Of a stretch of 23,084 nt of DNA, positions 5,179 through 8,848 are shown piece by piece. Where the stretch lies: the IMG/VR virus record IMGVR_UViG_3300013325_000001, positions 62,001-85,084 of that record; one strand, given 5' to 3'. A model generated the notes under the pieces. The model saw only the letters and a list, made by a program, of their open reading frames with translations. It was not told where the DNA came from and searched no databases. The position numbers and the translations under genes were made by a program. The DNA is from an uncultured virus (IMG/VR IMGVR_UViG_3300013325_000001) (lineage: Duplodnaviria; Heunggongvirae; Uroviricota; Caudoviricetes). Every line of letters begins with the position of its first letter. Within the stretch, counting starts at the first letter, position 1.

Positions 5179-5649
5179 GTGGATATCTACGTCCGCAAGA
5201 CGCTCGACGGCTCCCTGCGGCCCGTGTCTGATGAGGACGCCGAGGCCTTGAGAACGATCAAGCTCGGCGAGCCGATAAAGGTCAAGGTCACCAAGCCCCG
5301 CAACTACAAGTTCCTGCAGAAGACGATGGTGCTGTTCGGCATCGCCTACGACCATTTTTGCGAGTTCGGTATCTCCGAGGCGGTTTACCGTGGGCGACCC
5401 GTGGTGCCGTGCAAAGAGACCTTTCGCAAAAACCTGATCGTCCTGGCCGGTCACTATGATCCGGTGTTCGACGTGAGGGGTAGGGTCAAGCTGGTGCCGC
5501 ACTCGCTGTCGTATGCGAAATGCACCGAGGAGCAGGCGCAGAAAATCTACAGCGACGTGATCAATGCGGTGCTCGCTAACGTGTACCGGGGCAACCTGAG
5601 CGAGGAGGAGCTGAACAAGCGCGTGATGGAGGTTCTGTCCTTTGCGTGA
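5179..5649 (+). CDS. DUF1367-family protein
   Basis: KPRNYKF...FRKNLIVLAGHYD...SLSYAKC...YSDVINAV pattern; GAGG RBS. Confidence 0.75.
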   Translation: MDIYVRKTLDGSLRPVSDEDAEALRTIKLGEPIKVKVTKPRNYKFLQKTMVLFGIAYDHFCEFGISEAVYRGRPVVPCKETFRKNLIVLAGHYDPVFDVRGRVKLVPHSLSYAKCTEEQAQKIYSDVINAVLANVYRGNLSEEELNKRVMEVLSFA

Positions 5650-5786: not shown

Positions 5787-6467
5787 ATGACCGCTACGAT
5801 TCTGCAGGAAGACGTTGATTCTCTTTGGAAAGTTATCGCCACGCGGCTATGTGCTGCGCGTCGCGTGTCTGGCATGAAACAGCCGCAAGTAGCGGCGGCT
5901 GTCGGTCAGAAGAACATGACCCAAGTGTCCCTGTGGGAGAGTGGCGAACGCCGCCCCAAGCTGGCCGATCTGATTATGATGGCCAAGCTGTATGGCGTGC
6001 CGATGGACTTCCTGTGTGGCCTGTCTAATGACCCGCTCGCTGATGCGCCTGAGAATAATCAGGGGTTCCTGGCGAACATGATCACCAAGGCCATTCAGAC
6101 CAATCACATGAGCTGGGTTCAGGCCACCTCGCAGTCAGTCGCGGCTACGATCAAGAATCACGGCCAGGACCGCAGCGATCTGGTGCAGGCCGGCAAGATT
6201 CTTAACGACTTGTTCAAGGCATACAACCGGATCAAGGAACTCAACCCTGAGTTCGATGACGAGGTTCGCGGGGCGTCCAAGTTCGAGTCGGAGCTGGCGC
6301 GCCTGTATGACCTGATCAGGGTAGCCGAGCACCGGATCGACGAGGAGCGGCGGCAGTGCGAGATCATCGACCGCGAGGTGGGCATCGCCAGCGGAGAGTT
6401 CGAGCGTAATGCCCAGCGCGACGCGGCGGCGACCGTCAACCAGATGATGTTGGATATCTCCCGGTAG
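5787..6467 (+). CDS. XRE-family HTH transcriptional regulator with a helical C-terminal extension
   Basis: [21 protein letters not shown]...[12 protein letters not shown]...[11 protein letters not shown] is a classic XRE/HTH_3 domain. Confidence 0.85.
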
Positions 6468-6504
6468 CAATCCATTTGCAGTTTCAACCCAACGAGGCGA
6501 CACC

Positions 6505-6777
6505 ATGAACAAAGCGGAATTGATCGACGCCATCGCGGCGAATGCGGATATCAGCAAGGCGGCAGCCGGTCGGGCGCTCGATGCGTTCACTGACACCATT
6601 GAAAAGACCCTGGCTACCGGTGATAGCGTCGCCCTGGTCGGTTTCGGCACCTTCACCGTGAAGTACCGCGAGGCCCGCACTGGTCGCAACCCGCAGACCG
6701 GCGAGCCGATGGAGATCAAGGCAAGCACCGTCCCAGGCTTCAAGCCAGGCAAGTCCCTGAAAGACGCCGTAGCGTGA
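6505..6777 (+). CDS. hupB: HU histone-like DNA-binding protein
   Basis: [11 protein letters not shown]...VALVGFGTF...[10 protein letters not shown]...[13 protein letters not shown]. Confidence 0.95.
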
Positions 6778-6784
6778 TTGATCG

Positions 6785-7512
6785 GCCCCGGCGAATACCG
6801 GGGCTGTATCGGAGAGTGATCTGCCGTAGGCGGTAGAGCTGGATTCAGCCGGAGACGGCTTACTGGCAAGTGTGGCGAAAGCCCTCAGATCATTCCCCGA
6901 TGCAGAGTTTCTGCATCACCGCAGTGGCATGCGGTTATTTAGCACCCGATCCCAGGCAGGGTTATGCCGCAGCTTGGGGAGTATGGGCTAGGGTTTCCTG
7001 GCCGACGCCGAGCAACTGCACCGTGAAGCGGTCGGCGATCCCGTAAGGGGGCTTGAGACACGGCGAGGCGTTTGACCGAGGCAGCGTAATGGCCTCCCCG
7101 CATACGGTAAGCGGGACGAACATGGCGAAAGCCGAACGACTCTACCCCTGCTTGCGTCATTGTGGGTATTCAGGCCGAAAGAGCAGATAGGCCGGCTGTC
7201 ATAGGCACGTAGCAGCGCCGTCATCCCCTGGCGCGGTAGGCCCCTATGAGGTAAGCGTGATGCGAGTGGCGACGTAATCGCCCTGATCACCTCGCAAGAG
7301 GCTGCATCGGTGGATGCCCTGCCCAACAACCCTAACCAGTTGTCTCGGTAGCACGAACGGGCAGGCTATCCACCCATGCAGGCGTGCCCAAGCGGGCTGC
7401 ACCGTTAGGATTCGCAAAGACCCGTAAACCTCCTGAGCCGGTATGAGCGAGACGGCCAAGACCAGAAATGACGGCGGGACGTAAGCGGGAGTAGCGCCCC
7501 GGTGCCTGCATG
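6785..7512 (+). ncRNA. Candidate large, highly structured ncRNA (GOLLD/ROOL-like size class; family not identified)
   Basis: No credible ORF; several GNRA-capped hairpins, nested long-range helices with G-U pairs on the + strand, and possible pseudoknots (see findings). Boundaries are approximate. Confidence 0.65.
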
Positions 7513-7888
7513 ACCCATTCAAAGCAACTGAGAAGCATTCAAAGCCAGATCGGCAGGCTTCCCATGCACGGGCAACGCTCCATCCCCTCCGTAGTGCTCA
7601 ATATCCCCATAGAGCGGGAAACCCCCAAGGGGCAGCGCACCCTCCCGGTAGTACCTTCAATCCCGCAGGTGTGTCTGTTCACCCGCAACCCGGTAGGCCA
7701 TTCCGGTTCCCTGAGTGTTAGCCAGGCTCTGATCGCCTAGAACGCCGAACGCATGGCATTGCGCTAGGGGGCGCACAAGGGGGCAATAAACACCGACAGC
7801 CAAGGGAATCCATCTGCCCTCCTTGCCAGGCGCCGCGCTGGTTGGCGAAACAGCGGCATCACCCATCACCACTACCCAGGATCACGCC

Positions 7889-8848
7889 ATGGCTGCACAG
7901 ACCCCAGCCAAGCCGGCAGCTGCCAAGAAGGCCGGCACCAAGCCCAAGGCGGGCACCGCCCCCAAGGGCGCCACCAAGCGCGCACGTAAGCCGGAGCCAG
8001 CCAAAGGCCCCGCTATTGGTGATCGCAATCCCGAGACAGTCGAGCTGTCACCCGAAGATCAATTGCTCGCTGAAATGGACCCGAGGCATGTCCAGTTCGT
8101 CGAGCACTACCTGATTGAGCTGAACCAGACCAAGGCATACCAGGCAGTGTTTGGGCGCGATATGAGCCCCAAGGTTGCGTGTGTATCGGCCCATCACCTG
8201 CTAAAAACTCCTAACGTGACCCGCCTAATGGCTATGCGGGTTAGGGCCATGTTTGAGCGAACCGAAGGGCTGCAAGACCGCATGCTCGCGCAGCAATTCG
8301 CGCTGGCCTTTGCTGACCCGAACGAACTGGTCGAGCACCGTCGCGAGAGTTGCAGGTACTGCTACGGCATCAATCACGAATACCAGCTCAAGCCCAGCGA
8401 GCAGGATCAACGCCGGATCGAGTGGCAGAAGGAAGTACGCGCCGCGCTGGCTGAGAAAGAGGAGCCGCCGGAGTGGGATGAATTGGGCGGCGTCGGCTTC
8501 GATCCGCGCAGAGAGCCCGTCGATACGTGCCCTGAGTGCTATGGCGAAGGCGTTCCGCGCATCGTGATGAAAGACACCCGCGATCTGTCACCTGCTGCGA
8601 AAGCCCTTTATGCCGGCGCCAAGTGGGGCAAGGACGGCATGGAAATGCTGATGCACAGCCAGGAGAAGGCCCGCGACGTGCTGCTCAAGATCCTCAAGCT
8701 GTACGACGACAAGGCAGAGGTGGTGCTGGGCGTCGTGCCGCAGGAGAAACTGGACTCGCTGTACGCCGAAGCACTGGCTAACGCCATGGCGGGGCGCGAA
8801 CGCACCCAGGGGCGCAAGATCGACGCAGCCCAGGAAGGCGTCAAATAG
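7889..8848 (+). CDS. terS: Terminase small subunit with a Zn-finger insertion
   Basis: FVEHYLIELNQTKAYQAVF...SAHHLLKTPNV TerS N-terminus; CRYCYG...CPECYGEG; DTRDLSPAAKALYAGAK. Confidence 0.85.
   Translation: MAAQTPAKPAAAKKAGTKPKAGTAPKGATKRARKPEPAKGPAIGDRNPETVELSPEDQLLAEMDPRHVQFVEHYLIELNQTKAYQAVFGRDMSPKVACVSAHHLLKTPNVTRLMAMRVRAMFERTEGLQDRMLAQQFALAFADPNELVEHRRESCRYCYGINHEYQLKPSEQDQRRIEWQKEVRAALAEKEEPPEWDELGGVGFDPRREPVDTCPECYGEGVPRIVMKDTRDLSPAAKALYAGAKWGKDGMEMLMHSQEKARDVLLKILKLYDDKAEVVLGVVPQEKLDSLYAEALANAMAGRERTQGRKIDAAQEGVK

Follow-up and report, generated by a model that had tools for sequence, protein, structure and literature searches.

Comparative evidence for a conserved RNA domain in the modular non-coding gap between the HU and small terminase genes of an uncultured tailed phage

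The HU-terS gap and its coding potential

The stretch of DNA analysed here (23,084 nt, referred to as the window) constitutes the last 23 kb of the 85,084-bp virus record IMGVR_UViG_3300013325_000001 of an uncultured member of the Caudoviricetes; the record carries terminal repeats and has a G+C content of 62%. On the plus strand of the window, the gene of an HU-type DNA-binding protein (6505-6777; Pfam Bac_DNA_binding, E 1.7e-35) is the upstream neighbour and the small terminase gene terS (7889-8848, alternative TTG start at 7823; Pfam Terminase_2, E 2.8e-14; PHROG 51, E 1.7e-19) the downstream neighbour of a gap of approximately 1 kb, which extends from the HU stop codon at 6777 to the terS start (7823/7889). 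A preliminary description had proposed that a single large ornate RNA of about 570 nt (about 730 nt with an additional 5' module) is located in this gap, at 6940-7512. According to the comparative analysis presented here, the gap is most likely a chain of separately folding modules and not one monolithic RNA, with a conserved RNA domain of 138 nt (7375-7512, plus strand; referred to as the core) as its best supported member.

Five open reading frames (ORFs) of 58-113 aa were mechanically called in or beside the gap, none of which matched a Pfam or PHROG family, and the gaps in the homologue alignments are 1-2 nt long; both observations argue for a non-coding region.

A covarying RNA domain of 138 nt

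The core is enclosed by the closing helix P1 (CATGCAGGC/GCCTGCATG, 7375-7383/7504-7512) and contains the hairpin P2 (7384-7400), the helix P4 (7406-7410/7431-7435) with the invariant loop CGCAAAGACCCGUAAA at 7413-7428, and the helices P5 (7437-7440/7453-7456) and P6 (7486-7489/7498-7501). Its invariant unpaired stretches comprise CGCAAAGACCCGU, CCAAnACC, GGCGGGA and GUAGCG. In an alignment of 24 sequences, the loop GCAAAGACCCGU together with GGCGGGA/GUAGCG, by which membership in the family was judged, forms invariant columns and is present in the window; as most core members were collected with a pattern of the P4 loop, the invariance of the latter is partly a matter of ascertainment. Two invariant stretches might additionally form a candidate pseudoknot (7421-7425/7474-7478, CCCGU/GCGGG), for which 99% of the cells pair, although covariation speaks neither for nor against it because its columns are invariant.

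The structure tested on the 24 aligned sequences consisted of P1, P2, P4, P5, P6 and the candidate pseudoknot: 94.6% of the cells were paired (versus 27-51% in slid controls), compensatory changes occurred at 21 of 36 pairs (versus 2-5 in slid controls), and the covariation score was reached by none of 500 shuffles. A covariance model (R1) was built from these sequences, the window among them, and gave 36 matches in 43 sources, corresponding to 33 distinct rows. In the alignment of the 33 distinct sequences, which was fitted to R1 and thus leans toward the structure, 94.1% of the cells were paired (slid controls 23-46%), with compensatory changes at 21 of 31 pairs. The window itself was matched at 7368-7521 with 142.3 bits (E 8e-37, model positions 1-153), a score that is partly due to construction as the window is a seed member; the loci outside the seed (L068, L092, L178-L183, L194) scored between 67 and 152 bits. 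The diverged core at the lower end of this range (L183, 67 bits) holds a long insertion, apparently in the P6 loop according to the model-fitted alignment. The core RNA is fixed on the plus strand, i.e. the strand of HU and terS, by its conserved G-U pairs, as these would correspond to A-C mismatches when read from the opposite strand.

These alignments identify the core as a genuine structured RNA with five covarying helices and invariant loops, and it founds an uncatalogued, well-supported RNA family across several orders of Proteobacteria. The preliminary description had suggested a search for covariation among homologues, and covariation was indeed found, but for the core at 7375-7512. Its proposal of a structured non-coding RNA on the plus strand thus holds for the region, the 3' part of which belongs to a family absent from Rfam 15, and does not hold for one RNA of approximately 570-730 nt.

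Modular composition of the region

The hairpins and helices listed in the preliminary description were all recovered on the plus strand (read from the sequence) and can be assigned to successive modules. A 5' module (6806-6939, plus strand) contains a second GGCGAAAGCC hairpin (6874-6883) and the pairings GAUGCAG/CUGCAUC (6899-6917) and CCGCA/UGCGG (6919-6934); module A (6940-7111, plus strand) contains hairpins including CGCCGA/TCGGCG and CCC-GTAA-GGG (7040-7049), the structures of both modules being putative. Module B (7112-7251, plus strand) is characterized by the island GAACAUGGCGAAAGCCGAAC with the hairpin GGC-GAAA-GCC (7124-7133) and by the hairpin TCATAGG/CCTATGA (7199-7205/7243-7249), while module C (7252-7374, plus strand) consists of hp1 (GGCGA-CGTAA-TCGCC, 7268-7282), hp2 (CCTC-GCAA-GAGG, 7290-7301) and a long hairpin (7309-7374; with flanking strands 7302/7309-7374/7381) that directly precedes the core. 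A G+C-rich hairpin without U-run was read from the sequence just 3' of the HU stop codon (6784-6805, plus strand).

Four GNRA-closed hairpins are present on the plus strand of the region and none on the minus strand (dinucleotide-shuffle mean 1.09; four reached by 32 of 1000 shuffles), and their density within the 23-kb window peaks here (7 in the 573-nt frame from 6801; median 1). Taken as a whole, the 573 nt did not stand out from shuffled controls in their folding energy (z -1.41 on the plus strand, with 10 of 100 shuffles as good; z -0.32 on the minus strand), whereas 7252-7384 did (z -4.82, 0 of 200 shuffles as good); the energy comparison named in the preliminary description thus fails for the region as a whole and succeeds for this segment. 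No other part stood out: 18 of 200 shuffles equalled the core (z -1.48), and the z values of 7112-7251 and 6985-7111 were +1.46 and -0.54. Regarding the two long-range pseudoknots proposed earlier, the complementary words do exist in the window, but the partners are absent or different in the relative L148 (see below), and one of the partner words, GTTAGG (GUUAGG), already serves as the 5' strand in the covarying helix P4.

The relative L148 (HU 92% and terS 85% aa identity) is devoid of window positions 6778-7251 and matches 7253-7822 starting from a few nt past its HU stop codon. All 56 positions of 7253-7308 are identical, and so are 120 of 139 in the core; in the apex of the long hairpin, only 45 of 70 columns are identical as a different sequence has been substituted with the pairing kept (G-U pairs included). 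Module C is moderately backed by this compensatory hairpin swap and by its folding (z -4.8). The relative L172 (terS 69% aa identity) displays the same HU-terS arrangement and has no RNA core, and in Pseudomonas prophages the core stands alone, with a closing helix of up to 19 bp. The claim of a single RNA of approximately 570-730 nt is not supported by this pattern: the conserved unit comprises 138 nt and occurs alone in the Pseudomonas prophages, L148 retains only 7252-7512 and L172 none of it.

Mosaic break-points are also evident in contigs of public sequencing runs (6816/6985 and 7112). A 14.6-kb contig (run X2) shows approximately 90% identity to 6985-7792, with 6817-6984 replaced by 140 other letters; in a contig of run X1, the match begins at 7112 and is preceded by unlike sequence. 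The sequencing runs listed for the stretch included none of RNA, and a run presumed to be RNA (X7) contained only short contigs of relatives. The single link of 6940-7251 to other sequences is the island GAACAUGGCGAAAGCCGAA, which agrees with the leaders of enteric prophages at 23-24 of 24-25 nt; a 16-mer of the island is shared by 118 loci in IMG/VR, 63 of which are of the enteric type. When R1 was run over 86 sources, the core was detected in 8, and 7 of these belong to the 80 full-length loci that had been gathered with the 5' island pattern. The hairpin hp2 with its flanks and with a GCAA or GAAA loop was present in 6 of 401 Pseudomonas genomes without the core, ahead of other cargo hairpins. 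The pattern GTCATAGGCACGTAGC, used for relatives of modules A and B in IMG/VR, gave three matches, all of them by chance and in coding-looking sequence, and a BLAST comparison of module A with the 401 Pseudomonas genomes yielded only four short matches (approximately 6992-7040), of which the two examined closely look coding. Homologous islands were aligned by anchored extraction, since MAFFT on sequence pairs or whole regions misaligned the shared islands.

These comparisons show that related phages differ by the gain, loss and exchange of modules, and the comparative support is strong for 7375-7512, moderate for 7252-7374 and hardly present at all for 6940-7251.

Distribution in phages and prophages

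A BLAST search for distant relatives in phage records gave one match, Citrobacter phage phiNP (77% identity over 92 nt), located inside an unannotated 1-kb gap 3' of a CI-type repressor gene. The 16-mer CGCAAAGACCCGTAAA was found at 25 loci in IMG/VR, of which 14 are true members as the same downstream motifs continue; its degenerate form occurred at 21 places in species-representative genomes, with 15 true members. The latter derive from 7 genomes of named Pseudomonas species, one Proteobacteria metagenome-assembled genome with the same core type, one member of the Alcaligenaceae and 6 Enterobacterales (Pectobacterium, Kosakonia, Superficieibacter, Buttiauxella, Phytobacter and Brenneria). 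By BLAST, the core was present at 10 places in 9 of the 401 Pseudomonas genomes; one Pseudomonas genome (G180) carries two copies at different chromosomal places (L178 and L194; 89% and 79% identity to the window core). When 151 genomes drawn from the whole class were searched with R1, the centre genome alone was matched, which marks the element as sporadic, as expected of prophage cargo. Members of the core family reside in temperate phages and in prophages, with hosts in Pseudomonas, the Alcaligenaceae and the Enterobacterales.

Cassettes in the enteric arrays

In the enteric prophages, the arrays are situated 3' of the gene of a repressor with HTH and Peptidase_S24 domains, its terminator and an operator-flanked promoter, and precede RdgC- or YfdQ-type early genes. 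Here, the core is one cassette of a long non-coding leader, beside DicF-like and sRNA-17-like cassettes; the enteric cassettes are bounded by GUUGUG...CACAAC, and some possess tRNA-like T-arms. In L041 and L038, cassettes bounded by GUUGUGG...CCACAACC hold D-arm-like and T-arm-like hairpins (GGUUCGAGUCC, GGUUCGAAUCC) and no anticodon loop; ARAGORN called no tRNA in them. In phiNP, a DicF-like hairpin with terminator lies directly 3' of the core (L001 3142-3195; 20.5 bits, below the gathering score of 48). The array of the window is not located directly 3' of a CI-type repressor gene with an operator-flanked promoter; it follows an HTH_3 regulator gene and then HU, and precedes terS. With phiNP and its relatives, the window has two cassettes in common: the core and the island hairpin, which agrees at 23 of 24 nt.

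sRNA-17 of Escherichia coli K1 RS218 is, according to the original report, a Northern-verified RNA of 193 nt from a gap of more than 1 kb in an mEp460-like prophage, the deletion of which increases the expression of yfdP and yfdR (PMC7719688); the comparison was made by means of the alignment in supplementary file 7 of that report and a 12-nt motif. The corresponding cassette type (GAAUGCGCAGGCUGAUGCGC...GCCGGAGAUCAGCnCCGGCC) shares the core loci L151 and L154, 3' of the core, and is found upstream of HU in the relative of the window, L172 (L172 1-95); no copy of the motif exists anywhere in the 85-kb phage record. This cassette type also occurs in L184, L185, L147, L078, L053 and L038 and is conserved from E. 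coli to Pseudomonas, one Pseudomonas variant showing a compensatory change in the first hairpin (CCCGGGCUGACGGG).

A further observation concerns the phiNP leader, a module of which matches the plus strand of the ban operon of phage P1 (L145, 2001-2107), just 3' of tRNA-Thr and antisense to predicted plp and upl; judged from the sequence match, these predicted ORFs may overlie a non-coding RNA. Another phiNP module abuts tRNA-Arg in SPN9TCW. In L006 (2606-2681), a tRNA-Met gene begins approximately 10 nt past the 3' strand of the closing helix of the core; this tRNA-Met was the sole call of ARAGORN over 38 related loci. The adjacency of the core and of another module to tRNAs hints at a shared processing of the tRNA type.

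Comparison with known RNA families

A cmscan of the whole window against Rfam 15 gave no match at the gathering score; with the threshold relaxed to E<=10, five junk matches were obtained for 6700-7950 (three to two miRNA models, one to a lncRNA and one to a Caulobacter sRNA; best 17.9 bits). Nothing at or near the gathering score was found in 12 homologous loci, and ARAGORN detected no tRNA or tmRNA gene in the window. The kinship to GOLLD and ROOL suggested in the preliminary description was consequently not borne out at either cmscan threshold, and the models of group I/II introns, RNase P and tmRNA, which it had named for comparison, gave no match either.

GOLLD (RF01998) and ROOL (RF03087) are phage-associated, non-coding and rich in GNRA hairpins. 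The RNA of the window is likewise phage-borne, non-coding and rich in GNRA hairpins, but its conserved unit comprises 138 nt with the rest being interchangeable, and its hosts are Proteobacteria. The immunity RNAs c4 of P1/P7 and CI of P4 are small, stable, processed from the leader of their own operon, and act by antisense pairing within their own transcript; for the core, pairing sites of this kind were not found, and neither the window nor the 12 loci matched these or any other curated families in Rfam.

DicF (RF00039), encoded in the dicBF leader of the Qin prophage, resembles the core as a prophage-borne non-coding RNA of a repressor-controlled operon and is liberated from a polycistronic transcript through the action of RNase III and RNase E (10.1101/2023.04.14.536235). 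In contrast, the window contains no DicF match at E<=10, the core is unlike DicF in sequence and structure, and no base-pairing target was found for it. sRNA-17 shares with the core the loci L151 and L154 and the same kind of leader; it is, however, another cassette, and R1 does not match cassettes of the sRNA-17 type. The put RNAs of HK022 are RNAs at the start of a phage operon, the putL/nutL place of which is occupied by the enteric array; they are described as RNAs of approximately 70 nt with two stems that bind the zinc-binding domain of the RNA polymerase beta' subunit and act in cis without protein factors (PMC9378689). The core differs by its 138 nt and five helices, and no likeness to put was seen.

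Neighbouring genes and the terS-proximal region

Upstream of HU, the plus strand of the window encodes a NinB/Orf-like protein (5179-5649) and an HTH_3 regulator (5787-6467); the latter is devoid of an S24 domain, and BLASTP revealed no similarity of the HTH protein of the window to the phiNP repressor (E 15). The gene content of the phage includes dUTPase, DHFR, a NinB/Orf-like protein, HU and a ParB-HTH protein. A large plus-strand block, which starts at the first base of the record and has terS approximately 15 kb upstream of it, is composed of putative structural genes as judged by position and ORF sizes.

The terS-proximal region (7513-7822, strand unassigned) has a conserved counterpart in L148, with identity at 263 of 322 columns and with 22 gap columns. 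As a region similar in outline is also present in L172, which is without the RNA core, 7513-7822 belongs with terS and not with the RNA. It contains repeated C-rich words ending in CNGTAR (CCGTAGTGC, CCGGTAGTACC, CCGGTAGGCC). Its sequence and position could be those of a packaging or late-regulatory region.

Proposed mode of action and alternative explanations

For the function of the array, we give about an even chance to a scheme in which the chain of modules is co-transcribed with its neighbours and cut at the closing helices, with the core acting in trans. The array would be transcribed together with HU, ahead of the long plus-strand block that starts at terS; host RNases would excise each module at its closing helix, just as RNase III and RNase E free DicF from the dicBF transcript; and the stable core RNA would act in trans via its invariant loops on a component that is conserved across these hosts. 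This component could be a protein or a ribonucleoprotein, a base-paired mRNA being less likely: in 5 host genomes, the reverse complement of the invariant loop was not more frequent than a control pattern, and the phage genome contained only 9-mers complementary to it, i.e. no antisense target emerged, which makes binding via the invariant loops likelier than base-pairing with mRNA.

Several points weigh against this scheme. Co-transcription, excision and trans action are steps that we infer and that stand apart from the observations described above of a covarying, mobile RNA domain of defined strand within blocks of co-directional genes, and a closing helix is by itself no evidence of RNase III cleavage. 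A consensus scan of 6400-8000 found neither a terminator nor a sigma-70 promoter. The folding energies of modules A and B (6940-7251) do not beat those of the shuffles. This GC-rich phage and 7 enteric loci alike carry the 5' island module together with the core, and in an unchanged order, which would fit a larger functional unit as well. Finally, a word upstream of the core (7302-7307 in the window, CACAAC in the enterics) is likewise complementary to the 5' strand of P1; as this strand can pair upstream or downstream, an alternative pairing and thereby a cis-regulatory switch is hinted at.

The last point leads to the main rival, which we consider rather unlikely: a cis-acting operon leader that alters downstream transcription, either by processive antitermination/anti-Rho in the manner of HK022 put or by an attenuator-like helix switch. 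In its favor, a three-strand complementarity exists between CUGCAU (7302-7307), AUGCAG (7376-7381) and CUGCAU (7506-7511), paralleled by CACAAC/GUUGUG/CACAAC in the enterics, and the minimum free energy (MFE) fold of the whole region takes the upstream pairing; L004 and L006, however, are without the upstream complementary word, and their P1 sequence is changed. The genomic position is also suggestive, as the enteric array occupies the nutL/N or putL place immediately 3' of the repressor-controlled early-left promoter, the array of the window precedes a plus-strand gene run (from terS past the end of the record and on to the putative structural genes), and a plus-strand ORF comes next in 13 of 14 inspected IMG/VR loci, the 14th locus being cut; but the distances of the core to promoters and to the next gene vary widely, L172 retains the HU-terS arrangement without the RNA, and the scan of 6400-8000 showed no terminator 3' of the core. 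A precedent for action in cis without protein factors is provided by the put RNAs (PMC9378689), which with approximately 70 nt and two stems are, however, considerably simpler than the core with its 138 nt and five helices. The words CUGCAU/AUGCAG recur at module boundaries, also at 6899-6917, and the same topology is found in Pseudomonas prophages with CCGAUGC/GCAUCGG; these recurring boundary words may represent a switch or a recombination footprint.

The remaining explanations are less probable. One large ornate RNA of approximately 570-730 nt, in which all modules fold together in a GOLLD/ROOL-like manner, is improbable: the peak in GNRA-hairpin density within the 23-kb window, the presence of GAAA loops together with a word resembling the 11-nt receptor, and the common order of island module and core in the window and 7 enteric loci would suit it, but neither GOLLD, ROOL nor any other large RNA was matched in Rfam, the core occurs alone in Pseudomonas prophages and with module C only in L148, both long-range pseudoknots are unconserved, and the whole region folds with a z of -1.41. 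Even less credence is given to a ligand-sensing (riboswitch-like) or self-processing ribozyme core within a phage transcript. The invariant unpaired stretches, the possible pseudoknot between two of them (in invariant columns) and a complexity near that of known aptamers would be in line with a sensor or ribozyme, whereas no Rfam ribozyme or riboswitch model matches, and a conserved expression platform, terminator or helix sequestering a ribosome-binding site is missing 3' of the core in three lineages. An element at the DNA level (packaging site, origin or recombination site), the inverted repeats of which mimic RNA helices, is hardly credible: although the region adjoins terS and short inverted words at the module boundaries could serve recombination, the helices keep their pairing via G-U, equivalent to A-C mismatches on the other strand, the core is far from terS in the enteric and Pseudomonas prophages, and L172 has terS and its upstream region but no core.

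Resemblance to 23S rRNA and implications

The invariant P4 loop (window 7411-7435) resembles a strand of domain V of 23S rRNA (GACGGAAAGACCCCGUGAACCU; Pseudomonas 23S rRNA, L196, 2038-2063), which presumably runs from about A2058 into helix 74 (E. coli numbering); the Pseudomonas form of the core reads GCUAGGAUCGCAAAGACCCGUGAACCU, the rRNA GCUAGACGGAAAGACCCCGUGAACCU. The best local rRNA match of the loop was at the same site in all 5 lineages tested, with the score being reached by 0 of 500 (L156) to 79 of 500 (L157) shuffles and by 10 of 500 in the case of the window. The colinear chain score between core and 23S rRNA was significant only for L156 (z 4.07; window z -0.12). Mimicry of 23S rRNA is thus weakly supported by the sequences, and we regard it as very doubtful that the core might found a novel class of RNAs in phages that serves as a molecular decoy or sensor by mimicking this 23S segment. 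If this were true, the mimic could titrate a host factor that recognizes the rRNA segment, for example an assembly factor, an enzyme that modifies it or a defence nuclease directed against ribosomes.

The long non-coding leaders found in temperate phages tend to be regarded as no more than spacer or N/nut-type regions. The comparative data show that such regions harbor a domain of 138 nt with a conservation of ribozyme or riboswitch grade, which is missing from Rfam and common to phages of Pseudomonas, Alcaligenaceae and Enterobacterales. The core behaves as a mobile cassette in arrays that also hold DicF-like and sRNA-17-like RNAs, and this cassette system reaches past the enteric lambdoid prophages into a GC-rich 85-kb phage, where it occupies a different genomic slot. 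With the covariance model and the defined coordinates, the function of the arrays becomes open to testing, host takeover, anti-defence and transcription control being the candidate roles.

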